DNA of 64,000 nucleotides from an uncultured Candidatus Saccharibacteria bacterium (lineage in GTDB: Bacteria; Patescibacteriota; Minisyncoccia; Phycocordibacterales; Zambryskibacteraceae), in contig CAZYVS010000002.1 in assembly GCA_964651655.1 (NCBI GenBank), forward strand, positions 29,471 to 93,470, read 5' to 3'. The translations under genes were made by a program, and so were the position numbers. How positions within the stretch are numbered: position 1 is the first letter of the stretch; each line of letters begins with the position of its first letter. Positions 6,452 through 61,498 of the stretch are shown here, one piece after another. The notes beneath the pieces are model-generated. The model ran no database searches and was not told the DNA's origin. It was given only the letters and a program-made list of their open reading frames with translations.

Positions 6452-7593
6452 TTCTCTATCTCGTGCTCAAGAGCAATTTTTAGGACCTCTTCGGCAATCA
6501 AGCGCGCGGCGTTGGGCTTATAAAATGCCTTGGCCGCCGCTTTCATTTTTTCCCGCTCCGCCTCATTTGTCATCAGACGTTCAATTTCTGACGCGAGAAT
6601 ATTGGCGGTAAGATTATTTTCTTCTATCACTTCACAAGCCCCGGCGCGAGCGTAGGCAAAAGCGTTAGAATGCTGGTCGCGGCTGACCTTCTCGTTAATC
6701 GGAATGATGATTGACGGCACACCCCAAGCCGCAATCTCAAAAATGGTTGAACCGGCGCGAGAAATGACCAAAGAAGCCACTCCGGCCGCTGTGCGCATGG
6801 TCACGACATTCAAATAATCGATGGCCTTATATCTATCTTTATGGAGTGAATCAAAAAGCACGGCTTCGCTTGTGGCTCTCACTTCAACAATATTATTCTT
6901 GCCGGCTTGATGAATAATATTGTATTTTTTCACTAGATTCTTAAGATCTTCTAAAATAACATCGTTAATTTTTTGAGCTCCTTGCGAGCCGCCAAGCACT
7001 AAAATAACGGGTGTATTTTCTTCAATCTTTAAAAACTCGCGAGCGCCGGAAGTTATCGGTATAGCTATCTCTTGGCGCACCGGCTGTCCGGTATAAGCAA
7101 CCGCATTGGGCGGGAAATATTTAGCCGCCTCCTTATAAGAAACCGCGATGATTTTGGCAAATTTACCGGCCCATAAGTTCACTCTTCCCGGGATAGTATC
7201 GGATTCGTGAATAACCACAGGAATACGCAAAAGACGCGCCGCCATTAATACCGGGAAACTCGCGTATCCTCCCTTGCCAAAAACAACGTCTGGATAAAGC
7301 TTATACACCATATAAAAAGACGAGAGAACGCCCCAGCTCGTTTTTAACAAATCCAAGAAATTCGGAAAAAAAATCAACCAGTTGGCGGAACGGCGAATTT
7401 TGCCGGCGCTATTTTTTTTATAAATAATGCCGTGTTCAAAAAGCACTCCGGGGTTATAGGGCGCGGGAGCTATATAAAAAAGCTCCAGTTCAAGAAGTTT
7501 TTTTTTCTTGGCGAGATTGTTAAGTTCTTCGGCTATGGAAACTATCGGGTAAAAATGTCCCCCGGTACCACCGCCGGTAAATAAAATGCGCAT
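6448..7593 (-). CDS. murG: UDP-GlcNAc:undecaprenyl-PP-MurNAc-pentapeptide GlcNAc transferase
   Basis: N-terminal MRILFTGGGTGGHFYPIVSIAEEL. Confidence 0.9.
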   Translation of the reverse strand: MRILFTGGGTGGHFYPIVSIAEELNNLAKKKKLLELELFYIAPAPYNPGVLFEHGIIYKKNSAGKIRRSANWLIFFPNFLDLLKTSWGVLSSFYMVYKLYPDVVFGKGGYASFPVLMAARLLRIPVVIHESDTIPGRVNLWAGKFAKIIAVSYKEAAKYFPPNAVAYTGQPVRQEIAIPITSGAREFLKIEENTPVILVLGGSQGAQKINDVILEDLKNLVKKYNIIHQAGKNNIVEVRATSEAVLFDSLHKDRYKAIDYLNVVTMRTAAGVASLVISRAGSTIFEIAAWGVPSIIIPINEKVSRDQHSNAFAYARAGACEVIEENNLTANILASEIERLMTNEAEREKMKAAAKAFYKPNAARLIAEEVLKIALEHEIEK

Positions 7594-22238: not shown

Positions 22239-22568
22239 TTACTTTTTATCTAGCGATTTCAAATATTCAACAATTCCCTGTCGAATAAACCATGTGAAAT
22301 AAGTACTGAAATAAAAAAGCTCATTTTTTCTCTCCATCATCAGCTCTGCTCTTTCTTTGTACTTTTTTAAAGCAAAATCAAAATGAGCCCAACCTGCTTC
22401 AATTAATTTTTTCTTTGATACTCTCCTTGCCTTTTTATTTTTATAATATGCCTCGGCTATAGCTTCCACTAATGGTTTCAGATATTCTTTAAATTCATCT
22501 TTACTCTGCTCATCTTGCAAAGCATTTTCAATCATTTCTAATTCTTTTTCAAATCTTTTTCCAAGCAT
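22239..22568 (-). pseudogene. Truncated sigma-70 family fragment (regions 1.2 to 2.2 only)
   Basis: LIEAG...FYFSTYFTWFIRQGI matches sigma-70 region 2.1/2.2 (FSTYATWWIRQAI). The ORF stops where the hairpin repeat cluster begins. Confidence 0.5.
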
Positions 22569-22637: not shown

Positions 22638-22820
22638 CTACTCGAGTGGATCTTTGCTGGTCTCGACGGCTTCGTTGACATAGTCTAGCTCTGCTTGATT
22701 CTCACCGGATGAACCGCGAGATTCAGCCTGTCCCCGCTCGACATCGCGACCAGCCTGTTCATTGCTCGGAGGGCCAAATATGTCACCAAAAAACTCACCA
22801 AAGAACGATTTGCCGCCCAT
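22638..22820 (-). CDS. Small hypothetical acidic protein (60 aa)
   Basis: MGGKSFFGEFFGDIFG.... SD AGGAGGTGA lies 8 nt before the ATG. The 5'UTR/promoter is near-identical to that of the DUF397-like gene. Confidence 0.45.
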   Translation of the reverse strand: MGGKSFFGEFFGDIFGPPSNEQAGRDVERGQAESRGSSGENQAELDYVNEAVETSKDPLE

Positions 22821-22911: not shown

Positions 22912-22949
22912 ATACGTTAATGTAATGCGGTCGCATTAAAGTAACGTAT
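22912..22949. promoter_or_regulatory. 38-bp palindromic operator-like element, copy A
   Basis: ATACGTTAATGTAATGCG-GT-CGCATTAAAGTAACGTAT. Related to the copies at 34594-34631 and 35227-35264. Confidence 0.5.
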
Positions 22950-30426: not shown

Positions 30427-31755
30427 TCATTTGACGGGAAGTTTCTTCAAGAAGATATCGGCGCCATTCTCGGGAAAAGAACTTTTCCAAAATGGTCTGA
30501 TGGTGGCGGTCGCCTTAGCAACAGTCGGATAATTATTAAGAATGGAAGGAAGATCCTGTTTACTTCTCCCCAATAAATCGGCTTTTAGGGCCACCTCGTC
30601 CACATTCCATTCTATCGTCGTCTCACCCCTAACGGAAAAACTGATTTTGTTTGAAGACAGCGGATTAATTGACGCGTTGTTTGTCAAAGCAAATTCAAGC
30701 GAGTCGAGTTTATCGATATTCAGCGATTCACCGGCCGCTAAAGTGACTTTGTCAACAACCAATTCACGAGACAGATCGCTTCTTTTGAACATAACTCCGG
30801 CCAAGTCAGCAGACATATTTATCATCACCCCTTCCCCGTTGGTTGGAACCGATTGAGGCAACTCTTTAAAAGTGACCGAGGAAAGAGACGGCAACAAGAT
30901 AAAGTCTTCCGGCACTTGAGCTTTGGCTTCGGAAATTAATCCTTCTTTGAGCGCGGTTTCAAGTTGCTCTCTGACTCGCGCCCCATCTTCACTTTTGATT
31001 ATCTTTTCCGTACCGGAAAAGCCGCCGGACATTTCGGTCTTAGAACGAGCATACACGGAGGCAAACAGCGAAGTGCCCTTAAGCCCGGGAAGAGTAAAAT
31101 CGGCAAACCCGATATTGAATCCTTGGCCGGGACGTTCGGCATAGACCACCACTTCCAGAGCGCCCAATTTTTCTTCACCGTTGACCAGTTTCTTGCCGGG
31201 AATAACAATGGCATCCGGGACTTGATAAATTTTACCGTCCGGGGTTTCAAAACGCGTCGTGGCCCTCAACCTCTGTTCAACGATACTGGCATTATAGACA
31301 ACAATGGTGCCGCTAGCTTTTCTTTCTACTTCCTGTTCTCCGGATGTGGACACTTCTTGACCTTTCTCCATAGAAAGTTTAACAATGCTAAAAAGAAGTC
31401 CGCTCTCGCCCTCCTTGCGCGCCTCATACAAGCCACCGTCAAAAGACACTGCTTGAGATTTAGGCACATAGGCCAACGTGGCGCCGCCAAATACGGAAAG
31501 TATAGGAAAAATGAGTATCAGGACGGCGATGCCGATTGCTATCCACTTGCGTCTGCCCCGGCTATTGGCGGAACTACCGCCGTTTGGCGGAAAATTGAAA
31601 CTATTATCAGGCGATGAATCATTAAACGAATAATTTTCTTTTGAAGTTTGGGGCATTTCGCGACGCTCGATTCTGCGACGTCCCTCGGGAATAGGAATGT
31701 CCCGAATGCTTCTTTTTCTCTCTGGCACGACTATGTCTTCAATATGTTTCGGCAT
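30427..31755 (-). CDS. Hypothetical membrane-anchored protein (442 aa) at the position usually held by secY/adk/map
   Basis: Basic N-terminus, one TM helix, and a large extracytoplasmic domain with no recognisable motifs. Confidence 0.5.
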   Translation of the reverse strand: MPKHIEDIVVPERKRSIRDIPIPEGRRRIERREMPQTSKENYSFNDSSPDNSFNFPPNGGSSANSRGRRKWIAIGIAVLILIFPILSVFGGATLAYVPKSQAVSFDGGLYEARKEGESGLLFSIVKLSMEKGQEVSTSGEQEVERKASGTIVVYNASIVEQRLRATTRFETPDGKIYQVPDAIVIPGKKLVNGEEKLGALEVVVYAERPGQGFNIGFADFTLPGLKGTSLFASVYARSKTEMSGGFSGTEKIIKSEDGARVREQLETALKEGLISEAKAQVPEDFILLPSLSSVTFKELPQSVPTNGEGVMINMSADLAGVMFKRSDLSRELVVDKVTLAAGESLNIDKLDSLEFALTNNASINPLSSNKISFSVRGETTIEWNVDEVALKADLLGRSKQDLPSILNNYPTVAKATATIRPFWKSSFPENGADIFLKKLPVK

Positions 31756-31770
31756 GTCAAAAATTATAAC

Positions 31771-31796
31771 TTATTTATAGTGAGCTTGTCGAATTA
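31771..31796 (-). promoter_or_regulatory. Conserved intercistronic motif, copy e (alaS stop to the hypothetical gene)
   Basis: Coding-strand TAATTCGACAAGCTCACTATAAATAA, then a second TTATAAT 7 nt before the ATG. Confidence 0.55.
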
Positions 31797-33068
31797 TTTT
31801 TTAAATTTACGCCTTCCACCGGAACGCGAGATAGTTTGGTGTTTGCTCATTTCTTTGTCAAAAGCGGCGCGGTCGATTTTTATGCCCTTCTCCCCGGCCA
31901 GCTCTTCAGTCAATTCTATCGGGAAACCATAACTTGTGAAGAGGATAAAAGGATCAACCCCCTTATCAAACTGTTTGAGGCCTGATTCCAAAGTTTTGCC
32001 GAATTTTTCAATTTCCGTTGAGATAATATCCGCTATCGCCGGATTAAAGACATAAAGTCCCTTATAACTTTCATGATTAGAAACGGCTTTTGCCAGAGAA
32101 TTTATTGTTTTTAGATCACCTCCTATTTTTCTAACATGAACATAAGCGCGGCGAAGAAGCCGTCGTAAAATGTAACCCCGGCCGGTATTTGACGGTAAAA
32201 CACCGTCGCTTAGCGCAAAGACCGATGTTCGTATATGGTCGGCGATAATTCGTTTAGATCGGGTGAGAACGGAATCAAAACCATCAAACACCGAAATAAG
32301 CGGCGCAAACAGATCGGTGTCAAAAATATTATTTTTATTTTGAAGCGCCATAGTTAAACGCTCCAGCCCGGCGCCCGTATCAACATTTTTTTGTGATAAT
32401 TTATTTGTAATTTTTCCGTCTTTCTTCTCATATTCCATAAAGACATCGTTCCAAACTTCTACTACTTTCTGTTCTTTATCGGCCCTTTCATATTCTTGTT
32501 TGGTTAAATTTCCCAAGCCTTCGAGAGTAACGTCATAAAACATTTCCGTGTCCGGTCCGCACGGTCCGCTTTCTCCCGCGCTCCACCAATTTGATTTGGC
32601 TCCCAAAAAAAAGATTCTGTTCTTCGGCATATACTTCTGCCAAATTTTAAAAGCTTCTTCATCTTTCGGGGCATTTTCATCTCCCTCAAACACAGTAACG
32701 TAGAGTCGTTTAGGATCCAGGCCAAATCCTTCCTCTTTGTTTGTCAATAATTCATAACTCCACTGAATTGCTTCTTCTTTAAAGTAATCACCTAGAGACC
32801 AGTTACCAAGCATCTCAAAAAAAGTATCGTGAGTATTATCACCGACTTCGTTAATATCTTGGGTGCGTACACACTTCTGAATATTTACCAAACGTCTGCC
32901 TTGCGGATGTTTCTTACCCATAAGATATGGCACTAGAGGTTGCATCCCGGCGGTGGTGAATAGAACTGAAGAGTCATTCTCCGGCACGAGCGAGGCCGAC
33001 GGGATAACTGTGTGTCCCCGGTTCTCGAAAAAAGTCAGGAATCGCCGCCGAATTTCTTCAGATTGCAT
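31794..33068 (-). CDS. alaS: Alanyl-tRNA synthetase, N-terminal catalytic plus tRNA-recognition domains only (no editing or C-Ala domains)
   Basis: EIRRRFLTFFENRGHTVIPSASLVPENDSSVLFTTAGM and ADHIRTSVFALSDGVLPSNTGRGYILRRLLRR align to AlaRS residues 1 to about 455. The ORF ends there. Confidence 0.8.
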   Translation of the reverse strand: MQSEEIRRRFLTFFENRGHTVIPSASLVPENDSSVLFTTAGMQPLVPYLMGKKHPQGRRLVNIQKCVRTQDINEVGDNTHDTFFEMLGNWSLGDYFKEEAIQWSYELLTNKEEGFGLDPKRLYVTVFEGDENAPKDEEAFKIWQKYMPKNRIFFLGAKSNWWSAGESGPCGPDTEMFYDVTLEGLGNLTKQEYERADKEQKVVEVWNDVFMEYEKKDGKITNKLSQKNVDTGAGLERLTMALQNKNNIFDTDLFAPLISVFDGFDSVLTRSKRIIADHIRTSVFALSDGVLPSNTGRGYILRRLLRRAYVHVRKIGGDLKTINSLAKAVSNHESYKGLYVFNPAIADIISTEIEKFGKTLESGLKQFDKGVDPFILFTSYGFPIELTEELAGEKGIKIDRAAFDKEMSKHQTISRSGGRRKFKK

Positions 33069-33086
33069 TAGATGAATATAACACAA

Positions 33087-33668
33087 TTAAACGAGAGTCT
33101 TAAGCACTTTGAAATCTTCTTTAAGAGTCTCGAGAAGATGCTGGTTATAAATGGCCGCCGCCGGATGATAGAAAGGCGTAAATTTAAAATCCTTCGCCTG
33201 AAATACTTTGCCATGTAGAGCGCTGATGGATGAAAGCTCATTTTCAAGACCGTAACGATTCATGACGTATTGCATGGAAAACCGGCCAAGCGTGGCTATA
33301 ACTTTCGGTTTAATGATTCCAATTTGACGATCCAGAAACGGGGCGTAAATCTCTATCTCGTCCGGATAGGGATCACGGTTTCCGGGCGGGCGGTCTTTGA
33401 CAACATTGGTTACGTAGACGTTTTTTCTTTCTATACCGACGTGAGCCAGAAGCAGATCAAGCACCTTCCCCGCCCGCCCGCAAAACGGCCTGCCGGTTTT
33501 GGCCTCATTTTCTCCCGGTGCCTCGCCGATAAACATCACTATCGCCGAATGATTGCCTTCCCCTATTACCGGGAAATATTTATTTTGCACCCGCTCGGCA
33601 TAAAGCGGCGAAGCCTTGAGGGCGACAACCTCATTCTTAATTTTTTTTAATTCCTCATCACAATTCAT
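33087..33668 (-). CDS. Uracil-DNA glycosylase, family 4
   Basis: GEAPGENEAKTGRPFCGRAGKVL motif. Confidence 0.8.
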   Translation of the reverse strand: MNCDEELKKIKNEVVALKASPLYAERVQNKYFPVIGEGNHSAIVMFIGEAPGENEAKTGRPFCGRAGKVLDLLLAHVGIERKNVYVTNVVKDRPPGNRDPYPDEIEIYAPFLDRQIGIIKPKVIATLGRFSMQYVMNRYGLENELSSISALHGKVFQAKDFKFTPFYHPAAAIYNQHLLETLKEDFKVLKTLV

Positions 33669-34497
33669 TTATTTCGTTCATGACCGGTTCAATATTAAAA
33701 TTCTTACCAAGAAATTCATTCAATAATTTAGGATGCTTCTTAACATCCGAACAGAGAACAATCCTCTTCTCAAGAAGCGTCTTCTTATCGGCAGTCGAAA
33801 GCGAAACCAGGCAAGTCACGGGATGAAGCGCTTCGTTTTCAATCATCTCTTGCAAACCGGCATTTTCCGGATAATTCCATCCTATCATGGTTAAATTATT
33901 ACAAAGACCATAATGAATGGCCGTACTTGAAAATTTGGTATTGGTGACAAGCCAGCAATCGGTAACGTGCCTATTAGAACCGCCATAATCAAAAACGTTG
34001 CCGCGTAAATCGTCAAACCTTGCCTTGATATAAAGAACCACTTTCAAATCGGACTTTGTACCCAGACCATTATGAAATTTTGCTTCAATCATAATAAGTT
34101 CTTTTTCATTGTAGGCCACCACGTCTACTTCGTGCGCCACACATTCGCCAAGCACGGTTTGACGAGTCTGACACTTATAACCTTTGGCTTCAAGCACTCT
34201 GGCGATAAAATCTTCAAACGGAAAGCCTGAAGGTCCGAGATCCATCACCGCCCGACGAAGAGAATAACTTCTGGCAATCGGCTTGCTTATTTTTTGCAGA
34301 ATGGAAAAGGCGTGTCTGTAGATATCATTGGTTGTCATGTCGTCATGGAGTTCCGGCAAAATATGAGACATCACCTGCTCTACAGCTTCCTCCGTTGCGC
34401 CGGCATGAAAAAGAGAGTATCGGAGTTTTTCTTCATCAAAAATTTCCCGCTCTCCATTTGCCTTGAGAATTGTTACTTGTTTGGTTAGTTGCACCAT
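33658..34497 (-). CDS. ATP-cone domain fused to a PD-(D/E)xK (Mrr-like) restriction-endonuclease-fold domain
   Basis: The N-terminus ILKANGEREIFDEEKLRYSL is ATP-cone-like. The central FEDFIARVLEAKGY...VDVVAY...IMIEAKF has a D...ExK core. TATAAT lies 6 nt before the ATG. Confidence 0.55.
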   Translation of the reverse strand: MVQLTKQVTILKANGEREIFDEEKLRYSLFHAGATEEAVEQVMSHILPELHDDMTTNDIYRHAFSILQKISKPIARSYSLRRAVMDLGPSGFPFEDFIARVLEAKGYKCQTRQTVLGECVAHEVDVVAYNEKELIMIEAKFHNGLGTKSDLKVVLYIKARFDDLRGNVFDYGGSNRHVTDCWLVTNTKFSSTAIHYGLCNNLTMIGWNYPENAGLQEMIENEALHPVTCLVSLSTADKKTLLEKRIVLCSDVKKHPKLLNEFLGKNFNIEPVMNEINEL

Positions 34498-34593
34498 TCT
34501 AGTATTATACCTCACGACAATATCTCATTCATCACTCCGCCACTGAAACAGATTTTTTCACACACTCACCCTCGTTCATAGTTAAAATATCAT

Positions 34594-34631
34594 ATACGTT
34601 ACTTTTATGCGACCGCATTATTTTAACGTAT
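34594..34631. promoter_or_regulatory. 38-bp palindromic operator-like element, copy B (upstream of the ATP-cone nuclease gene)
   Basis: ATACGTTACTTTTATGCG-AC-CGCATTATTTTAACGTAT. Confidence 0.5.
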
Positions 34632-34661
34632 ATGTAAATAGAAATGGCATAGGAATTTTAA

Positions 34662-35228
34662 TTAAATTAATCCGAACTCTTCTCGCAGATGTTTATCGTT
34701 TTCCAGTTCATCAACAATCATGTATAAAAGATACTTACCTATTCTGAAATCAGTTTTGAGTAGAGTAATAATGTCTTCACAATCATAAGGATATATCCAA
34801 ACACTGTTTTGAAGACGTCGAATACCGGTCTGTCTAAAGAGTATGGTTAAATCATCTCTTGCCTTCTTTTTCTTTTCTGGAATATCAAAAATAATCACTC
34901 TCCATTTCTTATCCCATCTTTTGGGTTTTTGCAATTGGAAATCAGCGAATTGCCAACGGCGCAAGAGACTTTCCCCTTTTAAAGTCAGTTGATATCTCTT
35001 GCCGTCGTAGAAAAGTAATCCACGCTTAACAAGTTTACTGGCCGAGGAACCAATATACTCTTTTTGTCTCTTGTTTGGAAGAATGCCAAGCTTGGCAAGC
35101 GCTCCTATGACATTTGGAGCAACCAGAGCCACACTCAACATGCCCGCGACTGCCACAGTTTGCAAAATTACGTGTTGCAAATTTTTACGCTTTGATTTCT
35201 TACGGCTTTTATTCTCTAATTTACCCAT
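34662..35228 (-). CDS. wHTH plus Cas2/VapD-like fold protein (PaaX-like architecture); putative regulator
   Basis: The C-terminal half WRVIIFDIPEKKKKARDDLTILFRQTGIRRLQNSVWIYP resembles Cas2 or the PaaX C-terminus. The N-terminal half is wHTH-like. The gene is flanked by palindromic elements. Confidence 0.5.
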   Translation of the reverse strand: MGKLENKSRKKSKRKNLQHVILQTVAVAGMLSVALVAPNVIGALAKLGILPNKRQKEYIGSSASKLVKRGLLFYDGKRYQLTLKGESLLRRWQFADFQLQKPKRWDKKWRVIIFDIPEKKKKARDDLTILFRQTGIRRLQNSVWIYPYDCEDIITLLKTDFRIGKYLLYMIVDELENDKHLREEFGLI

Positions 35229-35264
35229 ACGTCACTTTTATGCGACCGCTTTATTATAACGTAT
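35227..35264. promoter_or_regulatory. 38-bp palindromic operator-like element, copy C (abuts the regulator's start codon and contains TATAAT)
   Basis: ATACGTCACTTTTATGCG-AC-CGCTTTATTATAACGTAT. Confidence 0.5.
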
Positions 35265-35289
35265 TATCCATAATTCTATTTACAGAGTT

Positions 35290-36417
35290 TTATTCCAAAA
35301 CCTTATCCATCACTCCGCCACCGAGACATGTCTCGGCATCATAAAATACTATTGATTGACCGAGTGAGAGTCCGCGTATCGGTTTCTTGAACTTCACCTC
35401 CACCCTGTTAAACACTCGGTGTTTAACATTTATGGGAAGTTTTTCACCTCGATGTCGTATCCGAGCAAACAATCGGGTTGTCTTTGGTTTGTTGATCCAA
35501 TTCACACTCTTGACCATAATTCGTGTTGGCGAATGTGATATTATCTCCGGTTTTTCATTTGAAACAGTAATAGTATTTGCCTTAATATCTTTGGACAAGA
35601 CATAAAAAGCTTTATCTTTCGGTAATTTCTTAGTGATTTCAAAACCGTGCCTTTCCCCTATGGTATATAGAAGAGCACCCTTGTGAGTACCTACAATGTT
35701 ACCGTGGGTATTTAATACTTTGCCTGGTTTGGTTGAAATAAAATGGGAAAGAAATTCATCCATCGGCACTTCGCCGATAAAACAGATTCCCTGGCTATCT
35801 TTCTTCTCAGAAACCGGCAAACGGTATTGGCGCGCCAACCTTCGCACCTCGCTCTTTTTCAAATCACCAATAGGAAAAATGGCATGGGAGAGATCATTTT
35901 GAGTTAGAGTCCATAGAAAATAGCTTTGATCTTTTTCTTTATCTTTTCCCTCCAACAACCGATAGCACAGAGGTTTAACCTTTGTAGATTCCCGAAGGTT
36001 AAACCTCTGTGCTGAAGCATAATGCCCAGTAGCAATATAATCCGCTCCCATTTTCTCGGCCTCTCTCCAGAACGTACCAAATTTAATTTCTCTATTGCAA
36101 AGCACATCTGGATTTGGTGTCCGGCCAAACTTGTATTCTGATATCATTTTATCTACTACACCACTCTTATACTCAGCTTCGAAATCAAAAAAGAGAAACG
36201 GGATGTCCAGTGCAATTGCCACTTTCATCGCATCGCGTCTTTCGTCTCTCCAACTGCAAGGTAAAAAATCCGGTTGCCAGACCTTTATAAATACACCCGT
36301 CACATCATGGCCAGTCTTTTTCAAAAGCGCGGCGCTCACCGCGGAATCCACTCCCCCAGAAAGACCAACAAAAACTTTGCGACTAGAGATATTGGGCGAT
36401 ATTTTTTTTATGTTCAT
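35290..36417 (-). CDS. mnmA: tRNA-specific 2-thiouridylase
   Basis: VFVGLSGGVDSAVSAALL PP-loop and MnmA family sequence throughout. Confidence 0.85.
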   Translation of the reverse strand: MNIKKISPNISSRKVFVGLSGGVDSAVSAALLKKTGHDVTGVFIKVWQPDFLPCSWRDERRDAMKVAIALDIPFLFFDFEAEYKSGVVDKMISEYKFGRTPNPDVLCNREIKFGTFWREAEKMGADYIATGHYASAQRFNLRESTKVKPLCYRLLEGKDKEKDQSYFLWTLTQNDLSHAIFPIGDLKKSEVRRLARQYRLPVSEKKDSQGICFIGEVPMDEFLSHFISTKPGKVLNTHGNIVGTHKGALLYTIGERHGFEITKKLPKDKAFYVLSKDIKANTITVSNEKPEIISHSPTRIMVKSVNWINKPKTTRLFARIRHRGEKLPINVKHRVFNRVEVKFKKPIRGLSLGQSIVFYDAETCLGGGVMDKVLE

Positions 36418-37243
36418 CAAAGGTTTTGGCATAATGCATTTTTCCATCCTTGCCTGTCAAGAAATACAAATAGGGTGTCGGGGTCGGATGAAGCGCCGCT
36501 TTAATCGAGACTAATCCGGGATTGTTGATGGGATTTTTGGGCAGACCGACAAATTTGTAAGTGCTGGTTTCCGAATCCACCTGCAAGGGCATCCCCATGT
36601 CAAGCCGTTTCCAGAGAATATCCGAGGCCATTTCCCGATCCTCTTTAGTTTGGGTTTCCGCTTCAAGAAGCGAGGCGATGATAATAATTTCTTCCAGGAT
36701 CCGACCCGAAGATTTTATTTCGGGCAAAGTTGAAGAAATTTTGCGAGTAAAATTATCGTTCATCAATTTAATGGTCGAAGAAGCCGTGGCGGTCACGGGT
36801 ATAAAGTAAGTATCGGGGAAAAGATACCCTTCCGGGGCCAAGGCCACAAAATTCTCGCGATCAAAGAATTTAAATCTATCGTCAAAAAGTGAAGAAATTT
36901 TTAGAACGTTGAAACCTTCCGGAATAGTTAGTTTAATTGTCTCCACATCATAATCTCCGCGGAAAATCCGCCAAGCAATGGTAAAAACGTTTTGCGGGCC
37001 AGACATTAAATATTGACCAGCTTTCATGGCGCGTTCGCCGCCGAGCAGAATCGCCGTTGCTCGAAACCAGAATGGAGAACGTATCGCTCTTTCCTCCCGT
37101 AATTTCTCCGCGAGAGAATAAAGTTCGGTCCCTTCCGGAACGGTAATCATGGCGCCTGAAGGAAATGCCAGGGGAGGAGTAGTAAAGAATGAGGCGACAA
37201 TAAACAGTATTATTCCCGCTAAAAGAGAAAGAATCTTTAGCAT
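36383..37243 (-). CDS. mltG: Endolytic murein transglycosylase (YceG-like)
   Basis: N-terminal TM and the PEGYLFPDTYF signature. Confidence 0.8.
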   Translation of the reverse strand: MLKILSLLAGIILFIVASFFTTPPLAFPSGAMITVPEGTELYSLAEKLREERAIRSPFWFRATAILLGGERAMKAGQYLMSGPQNVFTIAWRIFRGDYDVETIKLTIPEGFNVLKISSLFDDRFKFFDRENFVALAPEGYLFPDTYFIPVTATASSTIKLMNDNFTRKISSTLPEIKSSGRILEEIIIIASLLEAETQTKEDREMASDILWKRLDMGMPLQVDSETSTYKFVGLPKNPINNPGLVSIKAALHPTPTPYLYFLTGKDGKMHYAKTFDEHKKNIAQYL

Positions 37244-60259: not shown

Positions 60260-61498
60260 CTAGCTATGATACTCCTTTAGAAATTCTTTTTTAAATGCGA
60301 GAAAAGTGTCATTTAAAATACCCTCACGCATACGTTTGACCAAATTAATGATGAAGTAGAGATTGTGCATCGAACCGAGCGTGCCGCCGAGCATTTCGTG
60401 CGCCCGGTAAAGATGACAAAGATAAGCACGCGAATAATTTTTACACACTTCACATTCACATTTTGAATCAAGTGGCCCCATATCTTCTCTAAATTCTGCG
60501 TTTCTGATATTTATTTTACCTTTAGACGTGTAGAGAGTGCCGCCGCGACCATTGCGGGTCGGCGCCACACAATCAAAGAGGTCCACGCCATTCTCTACCC
60601 CCATAAACAAATCCTCCGGTTCGCCTATTCCCAAAAGATGCCTCGGCTTCTCTTTCGGTAAAATTTCATTGACCCACTTGACCGCAGTTTCCATATCTTT
60701 TTTGGCAAACGAACCGCCGATGCCAAAACCGTCAAAATCAAGCTTACCGATAAACTCCGCCGATTTTTTGCGAAGCGCTTCTTCCCTGCCTCCTTGCACA
60801 ATGCCAAACAAAGCCGGCACAGAGGCTAAACCTTTGGAATGTTTAAGGTTTAACCTCTGATGATATGCCAAACTTCTTTCGGCCCAACGATGAGTACGTG
60901 CCAATGCTTCTTCTTGATATTGATAATCCTCCGCCGGAGAAGTACACTCGTCGAAGGCAAAAATTATATCGGCGCCGAGGTCATGTTGAATCTCGATAGA
61001 CTTCTCCGGTGTAATGTAATGAAGAGAACCGTCAATGTGGGAACGAAAGGAAACTCCATCTTCGGATATTTTAACTAAAAAGGGAGTAGTATCAAAAAAA
61101 TCCTCGTCGCGTCGGAGCCCGCCACTTGCGGGTAAAGCGCGAGGATTTTTTTGATCTGCAACCTTAGAAATTCCCTTACCATACGCCGCCCCGAGGGAAA
61201 AAACTTGAAAACCGCCGGAATCGGTCATCAAGGGTCCGGACCAATTCATAAACTTGTGTAACCCGCCGAAACTTTTGACACGTTCCGCACCCGGTTCAAG
61301 ATAAAGATGATAAGTGTTTGCTAAAACCACTTCGGCGCCAATAGATTTGACCTGCTCCGGCATCAGCGCTTTGACTGTGGCTTTTGTCCCTACCGACACA
61401 AAAGCGGGCGTGTGAATGATTCCATGCGAAGTTTCCAAAATCCCCGCCCGTCCCAGCCTTTTCTCAAGTCTCTTTTCTTTAGAAAATTTTATAGCCAC
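60260..61498 (-). CDS. tgt: Queuine/preQ1 tRNA-ribosyltransferase
   Basis: VLANTYHLYLEPG and the zinc site CECEVCKNYSRAYLCHL. Confidence 0.9.
   Translation of the reverse strand: MAIKFSKEKRLEKRLGRAGILETSHGIIHTPAFVSVGTKATVKALMPEQVKSIGAEVVLANTYHLYLEPGAERVKSFGGLHKFMNWSGPLMTDSGGFQVFSLGAAYGKGISKVADQKNPRALPASGGLRRDEDFFDTTPFLVKISEDGVSFRSHIDGSLHYITPEKSIEIQHDLGADIIFAFDECTSPAEDYQYQEEALARTHRWAERSLAYHQRLNLKHSKGLASVPALFGIVQGGREEALRKKSAEFIGKLDFDGFGIGGSFAKKDMETAVKWVNEILPKEKPRHLLGIGEPEDLFMGVENGVDLFDCVAPTRNGRGGTLYTSKGKINIRNAEFREDMGPLDSKCECEVCKNYSRAYLCHLYRAHEMLGGTLGSMHNLYFIINLVKRMREGILNDTFLAFKKEFLKEYHS

Follow-up and report, generated by a model that had tools for sequence, protein, structure and literature searches.

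PaaX is a GntR-type repressor of phenylacetate catabolism in Escherichia coli and Pseudomonas (PDB 8A39, 3L09), and in E. coli its binding is relieved by phenylacetyl-CoA, the first intermediate of the pathway. Integrative elements leave a classic signature, namely direct repeats of a gene 3′ end around the inserted DNA with the working end supplied from the element side, and the minimal mobile elements of Neisseria are cassettes swapped between conserved flanking genes via transformation and homologous recombination. To our knowledge, the bacteria of the Candidate Phyla Radiation (CPR, or Patescibacteria) have few recognizable transcription factors and almost no experimentally defined regulation. 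Here, we describe a locus in a 64,000-nucleotide (nt) stretch of contig CAZYVS010000002.1 (the window), from an ultra-small CPR bacterium of the Zambryskibacteria/Paceibacteria type. A gene for a PaaX-like regulator of 188 amino acids (aa), with a palindrome on either side, lies there between two copies of the 3′ end of mnmA. The explanation that we favor, with reasonable though far from full confidence, is that positions 34551-35289 are an old insertion, a self-contained PaaX-like regulatory module with two cognate operators, and that the duplicated mnmA tail is its scar.

All genes flanking the regulator insertion are on the minus strand. The features of the region, with a solo palindrome elsewhere in the window, are:

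36383-37243, minus strand: mltG (gene call).
35290-36417, minus strand: mnmA, encoding a tRNA 2-thiouridylase of 375 aa (Pfam tRNA_Me_trans, 2e-71, plus the M and C domains).
35290-35328, minus strand: working 3′ end of mnmA, the proximal copy of the duplicated junction, TGTCTCGGTGGCGGAGTGATGGATAAGGTTTTGGAATAA, encoding CLGGGVMDKVLE and the stop.
35265-35289, minus strand: 25-nt spacer from the mnmA stop to palindrome 1, part of the insert, partly alignable with the relatives L091 and L092; presumably the upstream promoter region of the regulator gene.
35227-35264, minus strand: palindrome 1, ATACGTTATAATAAAGCGGTCGCATAAAAGTGACGTAT, predicted autoregulatory operator and promoter.
34662-35228, minus strand: gene for the 188-aa PaaX-like regulator (Pfam PF20803, 4.4e-18).
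34594-34631, minus strand: palindrome 2, ATACGTTAAAATAATGCGGTCGCATAAAAGTAACGTAT, 30 nt past the regulator stop, predicted second operator.
34551-34593, minus strand: 43-nt spacer from palindrome 2 to the relic, with 88-91% identity to L090 and L091.
34512-34550, minus strand: relic or distal copy of the mnmA 3′ end, TGTTTCAGTGGCGGAGTGATGAATGAGATATTGTCGTGA, reading CFSGGVMNEILS and a stop, non-coding.
34504-34509, minus strand: TATAAT, putative -10 box of the ATP-cone/Mrr gene, 6 nt ahead of its ATG.
33658-34497, minus strand: ATP-cone plus Mrr_cat (restriction-endonuclease-fold) protein of 279 aa (Pfam; synteny in ~70 loci).
33087-33668, minus strand: uracil-DNA glycosylase (UDG), family-4-type.
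After UDG in minus-strand gene order, minus strand: N-terminal alaS gene.
22912-22949, no strand assigned: solo third copy of the palindrome (35/38 vs palindrome 2).

An initial annotation of this DNA had proposed a small gene cassette inserted at the end of mnmA with duplication of about 24 bp or more of target or, alternatively, the product of a recombination event. Both of its 21-mers are found at 34530-34550 and 35308-35328, the mnmA stop lies at 35290-35292 as it had said, and the order repeat, palindrome, gene, palindrome, repeat is present. The near-identity of the copies is real, although the match is 19/21 rather than the 21/24 given before, and the duplication is also real, and its length exceeds the one suggested, with no less than 39 nt in the window and 61 nt in L091. 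The repeat lengthens to 33 nt at 82% identity (34518-34550 vs 35296-35328), and in full it comprises 29/39 identical nucleotides over 13 codons with the stop codon in register. Since stops sit just upstream in its frame, the distal copy is non-coding.

Chance or composition could in principle produce a 19/21 similarity with no duplication at all, given how short the segment is and that GGxGGxGTxATG codes for a motif conserved in MnmA. We give this next to no chance, and regard it as refuted on four grounds. A degenerate pattern for both 21-mers occurs at these 2 sites only in 64 kb, with 0 expected from 100 shuffles; the local alignment of the two copies has a z score of 8.4, equaled by 0/300 shuffles. 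The stop codons of both copies are in register, orthologous and longer copies exist in L091, L090 and L085, and the distal copy occupies the position of the real mnmA end in relatives without the insertion.

These relatives were collected by an MnmA scan with one genome per species, which gave 80 loci (designated here by L numbers). The order mltG-mnmA-ATP-cone-UDG-alaS is kept throughout, and in 42 related loci the gap between mnmA and the ATP-cone gene is < 150 nt. We treat these as empty sites, and they bear out the earlier suggestion that the regulator gene was inserted at the mnmA end. In about 9 of the 15 junctions read, the mnmA stop is followed directly by GGTATAAT (or GTTATAAT), then by 6-7 nt and the ATG or GTG of the ATP-cone gene (e.g. 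L011, L013, L021, L014 and L008). From the distal copy to the ATP-cone gene the window reads ...TCGTGA GGTATAAT ACTAGA ATG, which is the same layout. Because the distal copy (34512-34550) occupies the mnmA-end position of the empty sites, it is the displaced original end of mnmA; mnmA now uses the copy at 35290-35328, and what lies between the two copies, the 188-aa gene and its palindromes, has been inserted.

The same junction has a regulatory side. In all relatives examined (L011, L013, L021, L014, L041, L085 and L091), a TATAAT stands 6-7 nt before the ATP-cone/Mrr_cat start, and comM in L161 has the same TATAAT-7 nt-ATG layout. Such an arrangement implies that transcription of the ATP-cone/Mrr_cat gene would be leaderless, with its promoter embedded in the mnmA tail (window 34497-34515), as the upstream part of a leaderless promoter must lie inside that tail.

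The regulator gene with both palindromes is found at the mnmA site (locus A) in L006, L012, L085, L087/L088/L093, L090, L091, L092 and L099; in L005 and L009 a contig end falls inside the gene. The window, L090 and L091 have a common right-hand junction in which palindrome 2 is followed by ATATGATATTTWAACTATGAAYKAGRGTGAGTRTGTGAAAAAATC and then by the mnmA-end copy. In L091 the duplication starts 5 nt ahead of the Cys codon and ends 17 nt beyond the stop (z = 21.7), the L090 relic has a z score of 6.1, and L085 has the same scar. The relic of L090 and L091 is followed by a hairpin terminator and then by a reverse-strand gene; beyond it, L091 has a second short relic (TTGATTGTCTGGTAA) beside GGTATAAT, and the L090 contig stops before that point. 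The 3′ half of the window relic (GAGATATTGTCGTGA) resembles this second relic, from which we conclude that two older relics were probably fused into the window relic when a deletion removed the reverse-strand gene that L090, L091 and L006 have kept.

L085 illustrates how the ends may be exchanged. Its working mnmA end reads DKILH and a stop, while 16 nt past palindrome 2 it has the relic GCGGAGTGATGGACAGTATAGTTAAATAG (GGVMDSIVK and a stop) and then ATTTACAAA. This relic and its downstream sequence correspond to the working end (DSIIK and a stop) and downstream sequence of a close relative without the cassette, L041, which is the pattern expected for a repeat-flanked cassette crossing over inside the conserved GGCGGAGTGATGGA. 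In a neighbor-joining (NJ) tree of the four flanking proteins, which can serve as no more than a rough guide, one clade holds a mixture of carriers and empty sites, and the outgroups are all empty. This fits one old gain followed by repeated loss or re-gain through recombination at the repeat.

The inserted protein is PaaX-like in its DNA-binding and dimerization parts, a predicted winged helix-turn-helix (wHTH) followed by a Cas2-like PaaX_M domain. Its only Pfam match is PaaX_M (PF20803; 4.4e-18, 65.6 bits vs a gathering score of 24, residues 103-176), and the NCBIfam PaaX model TIGR02277 covers residues 57-159 at 2.3e-6 with 27 bits, against a cutoff of 264. An AlphaFold (AF2) model built from 20 sequences has three helices and a beta wing (H-H-H-beta-beta) and then a beta-alpha-beta-beta-alpha-beta domain. 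Foldseek places E. coli PaaX 8A39 first (E = 2.9e-4, TM 0.39), followed by Mycobacterium tuberculosis Rv0674 and then by many Cas2 proteins. There is no Pfam match to the PaaX N-domain or to PaaX_C, the regulator stopping at residue 188, directly past the Cas2-like domain, and there are no paa genes among the neighbors at its various loci (mnmA, ATP-cone/Mrr, UDG, PGK, HIT, ComEC-MBL, rpmB and others). As it lacks the C-terminal domain and has no paa genes nearby, we call the protein PaaX-like and not an orthologue of PaaX.

The window has one copy of the regulator gene, and the family has 1849 homologues, the top 120 of which have 66-100% identity and, with few exceptions, a length of 188-189 aa. 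Where their sources name them at all, the names vary between hypothetical, ‘PaaX’ and ‘Cas2’. The ferredoxin-like domain resembles Cas2 in its FDIP and QxSVW motifs, with the conserved FDIP aspartate retained, and in its weak profile and fold matches; it differs in that the matches to Cas2 models fall below the family cutoff, the domain is fused to a putative wHTH, there is no cas1, and the window has no CRISPR-like array. The PADLOC defence scan of the regulator gave weak Cas2 and wHTH matches only, PHROGs gave none that would point to a phage origin, and in the literature that we searched there was no paper tying PaaX-like proteins to Patescibacteria.

The palindromes share the 38-bp design ATACGTTA-N22-TAACGTAT, and each is internally symmetric. 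Palindromes 1 and 2 are 35/38 identical in direct register (3 mismatches) vs 28/38 (10 mismatches) with one of them inverted, and because the direct match is the better one they are direct copies and not terminal inverted repeats. A TATAAT lies within palindrome 1, which ends on the first two bases, AT, of the regulator ATG. A further 80 loci with homologues were collected from metagenomes. Upstream, positions -36 to +2 of the ATG have at least 12/19 symmetric pairs in 71/82 homologue loci. Past the stop, mostly within ~0-40 nt, a 38-mer with at least 13/19 pairs is present in 64/81 loci, compared with 6/339 random 110-nt windows. ATAAT at positions 8-12 is a property of the upstream copies (43/71), which end in the ATG, and rarely of the downstream ones (3/64).

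The palindrome sequence co-varies with the protein subfamily. The outer arms differ between subfamilies (ATACGTTA, ATACATCA, ATACGATA and ATACGCTA), and so do the cores (GCGGTCGC, GCTATAGC, CACTATCGTG, CCCTGTGGTG, GCCTATAGGC and others); arms and cores nevertheless stay symmetric, and matched between the two copies that flank one gene. Identity over the inner 22 nt is 75% within a locus vs 49% between loci, and over the core 12 nt it is 87% vs 55%. In palindrome 2, which is fully transcribed, mismatches of the G.T type (51) are not in excess over A.C (60), which argues for symmetry at the DNA level and against selection for an RNA hairpin. In E. coli, PaaX binds TGATTC-N27-GAATCA and represses its own promoter Px by steric hindrance (PMC9493321). 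The two systems are alike in a wHTH, predicted in the present case, followed by a Cas2-like central domain, with 8A39 as the best structural match, in a long-spaced inverted repeat (6+27+6 = 39 bp in E. coli, 8+22+8 = 38 bp here), and in a site over the own promoter, which by sequence implies autorepression here as well. They differ in that the regulator here has 188 aa, lacks PaaX_C and has no paa neighbors, that a second cognate site lies directly past the stop, and that there are many paralogues, each with its own palindrome variant. Taken together, the fixed positions, the co-variation, the lack of RNA bias and the likeness to the PaaX site make it most likely that the palindromes are operators of the regulator, the upstream one doubling as its promoter.

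It is distinctly improbable that the palindromes are instead RNA hairpins, the downstream one a terminator or mRNA stabilizer and the upstream one hiding the start codon in read-through transcripts from mnmA. They can fold, with a predicted 11-bp outer and 4-bp inner stem, the downstream palindrome sits 0-40 nt past the stop in every context, convergent genes included, and compensatory changes in the arms preserve the symmetry. However, no Rfam family matched, the fold of the whole 3′ region is no better than that of shuffles (z = -0.6), no consistent U-tract follows the palindrome and the terminator scan was empty at the palindromes. The absence of a G.U bias in palindrome 2 and the co-variation with the protein subfamily also speak against hairpins, as does the equal symmetry of the upstream copy, even though its own -10 box puts the transcript start inside the palindrome.

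A solo copy of the palindrome lies upstream of, and not within, a transcription unit, which again disfavors the hairpin reading. In the window it stands at 22912-22949, near dnaJ and 45 nt from tRNA-Ala(CGC). After 25 nt it is followed by TTGACA-N18-TATATT and, further on, by a strong Shine-Dalgarno sequence that precedes a 60-aa open reading frame (ORF; 22638-22820, minus strand). We compared the DnaJ neighborhoods of two other locus-A carriers, GCA_030648635.1 (the L085 genome) and GCA_030650605.1 (the L006 genome), and both have it (L170 4856-4893 and L171 5261-5298). Each solo palindrome is followed by C[GA]ACAAAAT and, after 25-45 nt including this motif, by TTGACA or TTGACT, a -10 box, AAAGGAGG or GAAAGGAG and a gene. 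The genes differ among the three genomes (the 60-aa ORF, a 175-aa membrane protein and a BamE-like lipoprotein). The palindrome thus stands ahead of a promoter in 3/3 of the paaX-A genomes examined, and its conservation supports a regulatory role. There are no extra cognate palindrome copies in 324 kb of flanking DNA.

The initial annotation had called for a search of the genome for further palindrome-gene-palindrome units. Among the homologues at > 80 loci, nearly all have a palindrome over the -10 box and ATG and another shortly past the stop. The homologues occupy at least 10 recurrent neighborhoods: locus A (mnmA/ATP-cone), locus B (PGK with a convergent HIT gene), locus C (a ComEC-type MBL gene with convergent rpmB), sites beside comM, murB, a sugar transferase, a CCA-adding-type enzyme, a DksA-type protein and gyrB, and a site between rplE and rpsN. 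One genome holds both A and B copies (L085, L086) and one contig holds B and C copies 9 kb apart (L095, L107); paralogues are 54-89% identical, and between loci the identity of copies is only about 60-78%. As each neighborhood is common to several divergent genomes, the copies are mostly vertically inherited paralogues. A rough NJ tree of paaX groups all locus-A copies except L012 in a single clade, with the B and C copies forming the clade next to it; its resolution is too poor to decide on an exchange between B and C.

Junction duplications recur with the paralogues. In about 17 of the 76 testable loci, the upstream junction recurs as a significant duplicate past palindrome 2. The duplicate comprises 106 nt of the MBL gene 3′ end in L100, 102 nt (MBL/rpmB) in L104, 69 nt spanning the MBL stop and the 3′ end of convergent rpmB in L108/L110, 51 nt with the first 10 codons and the leaderless promoter of comM in L161, the 3′ end of a reverse-strand gene in L162 and 19 nt of the rplE 3′ end in L168, and L133 and L142 have further MBL/rpmB junction duplications. 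An mnmA-like tag upstream of the locus-B copy in L086 (GTAGTGATGAATAAATT) is of low complexity and was rejected as unreliable. In each duplication one copy preserves one neighbor and the other copy preserves the other. The lengths (19, 38, 39, 51, 61, 69, 102 and 106 nt) and the distance from the inner boundary to the palindromes are not fixed, so this is no target duplication of the transposase type; with a range of 19-106 nt between loci, the recombination event that the initial annotation had offered as its alternative fits better. It may be that duplicative insertions are the only ones to survive where junctions are so compact, or that insertion goes through a circular intermediate bearing the repeat, followed by a single crossover. 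Nested relics of successive insertions seem to be present at both the mnmA/ATP-cone (L091 2240-2262) and the MBL/rpmB (L100 4642-4743) hotspots. In L100 the paaX cassette is followed by purB-like and DHFR-like genes before rpmB, and a second MBL-tail relic may lie beside rpmB at ~6870-6920, as read from ORF translations only.

These data also bear on whether the unit is an autonomous mobile cassette, its protein recognizing the palindromes as ends, excising and inserting, and leaving long target duplications. The unit, always with both palindromes, is found in at least 10 genomic contexts, local junction duplications flank it at no fewer than 4 independent loci, its presence among close relatives at locus A is patchy, its palindromes are almost exclusively self-flanking, and the FDIP aspartate of the Cas2-like domain is kept. 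We nevertheless consider such autonomy unlikely. The protein matches no recombinase, transposase or nuclease family beyond the weak similarity to Cas2, the duplications of 19-106 nt have inner boundaries at no fixed distance from the palindromes, and the copies diverge between loci, each of which is syntenic across many genomes, indicating vertical descent. There are no palindromes at ~60 paaX-less mnmA loci, so that empty sites hold no solo copies, and the solo palindrome adjoins a promoter in three genomes. The claim of the initial annotation that the palindromes behave as terminal inverted repeats is not supported, as they are direct copies, keep a fixed position relative to the start and the stop in nearly all homologues and co-vary with the gene copy. 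A transposon-like cassette is not supported either: there is no transposase or integrase, the upstream palindrome holds the -10 box and ATG and so doubles as promoter, and the layout resembles a PaaX operator. Were the units mobile after all, they would be previously unrecognized minimal selfish cassettes of the CPR, copied without Cas1 or a known recombinase into tight junctions with 19-106 bp duplications that leave the two neighbors functional, a proposition that we hold to be just as doubtful.

The mnmA/ATP-cone junction is a hotspot, with the layout mltG-mnmA-[empty, paaX, gene X, reverse gene, 141-aa gene or GARS gene]-ATP-cone-UDG. Among the alternative cargo are an unannotated 156-aa protein (MRYPETKRYTRVLVFG...; L006 6931-7401, L041 6242-6770) and a reverse-strand, zinc-ribbon-like protein of 87-118 aa with CWLLGH...YCKRC motifs (L006 7602-7865, L091 1874-2230), neither of them with a Pfam family. 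A candidate ‘relic’ in L041 (ATGGATAATATTG...) had no statistical support. This variety of cargo (gene X and the reverse-strand zinc-finger-like, 141-aa and GARS genes) might suggest that the scar represents attL and attR of a larger integrase-driven element at the mnmA 3′ end that has decayed to the regulator gene. The mnmA 3′ end is directly repeated, its working version on the element side and its displaced one opposite, and relatives have empty sites, all of which matches the signature of integrative elements; the donor-type and recipient-type mnmA ends of L085 are compatible with it. Such an origin is quite unlikely in our judgment. There is no integrase in the ~30 occupied mnmA/ATP-cone junctions examined and no recombinase domain among the co-inserted genes of relatives, which have no Pfam match. 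The non-paaX insertions at this junction have no significant mnmA relic (z < 3), and a few of their best relic matches directly adjoin the ATP-cone start. Like duplications flank paaX paralogues at unrelated loci with different target sequences, the repeat length varies by locus, the insert is a single gene of 0.74 kb, and the regulator and its two palindromes make up a family conserved on chromosomes, unlike typical island cargo.

Other known systems are more distant. With the Neisseria minimal mobile elements the locus shares conserved flanks (mnmA and the ATP-cone gene), different whole-gene cargo and a presence/absence pattern compatible with host recombination, and competence genes (ComEC, T2SSF/pilin-like) are present in the genomes examined; it differs in that the homology here seemingly comes from the duplicated junction segment and the cargo is a conserved paralogue family. 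Insertion sequences and miniature inverted-repeat transposable elements have the same succession of repeat, palindromic end, gene, palindromic end and repeat, but here the ends are direct, the duplications are long and variable, and there is neither a transposase nor a set of near-identical multiple copies. An integron cassette is likewise a single ORF between imperfect palindromes. The unit differs from it in having no RYYYAAC...GTTRRRY attC cores (the arms ATACGTTA/TAACGTAT have the GTT...AAC order), its own promoter (the upstream TATAAT), always the same gene family and no integron integrase in the regions examined.

In the mechanism that we propose, a truncated PaaX-type protein with a wHTH and a Cas2-like dimerization domain would bind ATACGTTA-N22-TAACGTAT as a dimer. 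At palindrome 1 the dimer would cover its own -10 box, transcription start and ATG, leading to autorepression as for E. coli PaaX at Px. Palindrome 2 would be a second operator, used for looping, for blocking or insulating transcription or for control of a downstream promoter, and the regulator would also bind at least one further site, the solo palindrome at 22912. On insertion the whole junction would have been duplicated, that is, the last 13 or more mnmA codons and the bases after the stop, with the proximal copy keeping mnmA intact and the distal copy keeping the sequence context of the ATP-cone promoter. Gain and loss of the module probably went through host recombination at the duplication: homologous recombination within GGCGGAGTGATGGA (GGGVM) could remove it or move it between related genomes, and recombination at this direct repeat would account for the patchy presence among relatives.

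Several observations weigh against this explanation. The palindromes flank only the gene itself, bar the one solo site, as those of a selfish unit would, and at loci B and C the genes on either side of palindrome 2 converge, so that there it cannot be a simple operator of a downstream promoter. The recurrence of duplications at several independent loci could mean that long duplications are a product of the insertion mechanism itself. No significant relic is present in the more distant locus-A carriers L087, L099, L012 and L006. In the window, L090 and L091, the 43-nt spacer past palindrome 2 and the 5′ half of the relic are 88-100% identical at the nucleotide level, more conserved than the neighboring genes (74-86%) for no identified reason, and a second comparison of spacer and 5′ relic with the adjacent coding DNA gave 89-95% vs 79-84%; reading the spacer gave no convincing small conserved ORF or antisense promoter. 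The solo palindrome is absent from the cassette-less L172, a weak control in which the region is rearranged. Finally, the AF2 model of the regulator is only moderate (pLDDT 64).

Some further observations concern the neighboring genes. The mnmA ORF is longer than the 375-aa public call and runs to 36447, and an exact-protein look-up of its product gave no match. Inside mnmA, at 35964-36013, is a perfect hairpin with a 19-bp stem (AGCACAGAGGTTTAACCTT ... AAGGTTAAACCTCTGTGCT), in frame, which extends the variable loop by ~13 codons (SAQRFNLRESTKVKPLCYR). L041 has the same hairpin, L021 and L010 have different ones at that spot, and the close relatives L090, L091, L085 and L013 have the short loop. 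A related copy with a 15-bp stem lies in frame at 60820-60859, inside an ORF (60260-61498) that, judging by its protein sequence, we take to be a tRNA-guanine transglycosylase (tgt-like). The two suggest a small palindromic element whose insertions into coding regions are in frame, for which the Rickettsia palindromic elements are a comparable case.

The fusion of an ATP-cone to an Mrr-type fold (33658-34497) is kept between mnmA and UDG across Paceibacteria, and its PADLOC matches are only weak. In the window alaS (30427-33068) is represented by a short gene for the N-terminal part (424-430 aa, with tRNA-synt_2c as the only domain), after which comes a 442-aa ORF with no Pfam match; in some relatives it has 531-545 aa including tRNA_SAD (L087 7928-9523, L173 138-1775), and it is possibly split or remodeled. 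A 109-aa ORF at 22239-22568 (minus strand) has no Pfam match, and its C-terminal end, FSTYFTWFIRQGIVEYL, by our reading resembles sigma-70 region 2. The Rfam scan of the window found three tRNAs and no other RNA family.

For the mnmA duplication itself, the main gain is clarity: the scar is genuine, left by an old and largely vertically inherited insertion and not by an active mobile element, and the role of the palindromes and the binding of the regulator are predictions from sequence. The locus shows how a gene can be inserted where a stop codon abuts the next -10 box, with empty sites and nested relics to document it. As the junction was duplicated, neither neighbor was damaged, and the direct repeat then permits loss or transfer by host recombination. 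The family-wide operator-gene-operator layout, the paralogue-specific palindromes and the recurrent junction duplications appear to be undescribed. A large family, with > 1800 database members, thereby gains a concrete prediction, a paralogue-specific ‘code’ of 38-bp operators with at least one conserved extra target.

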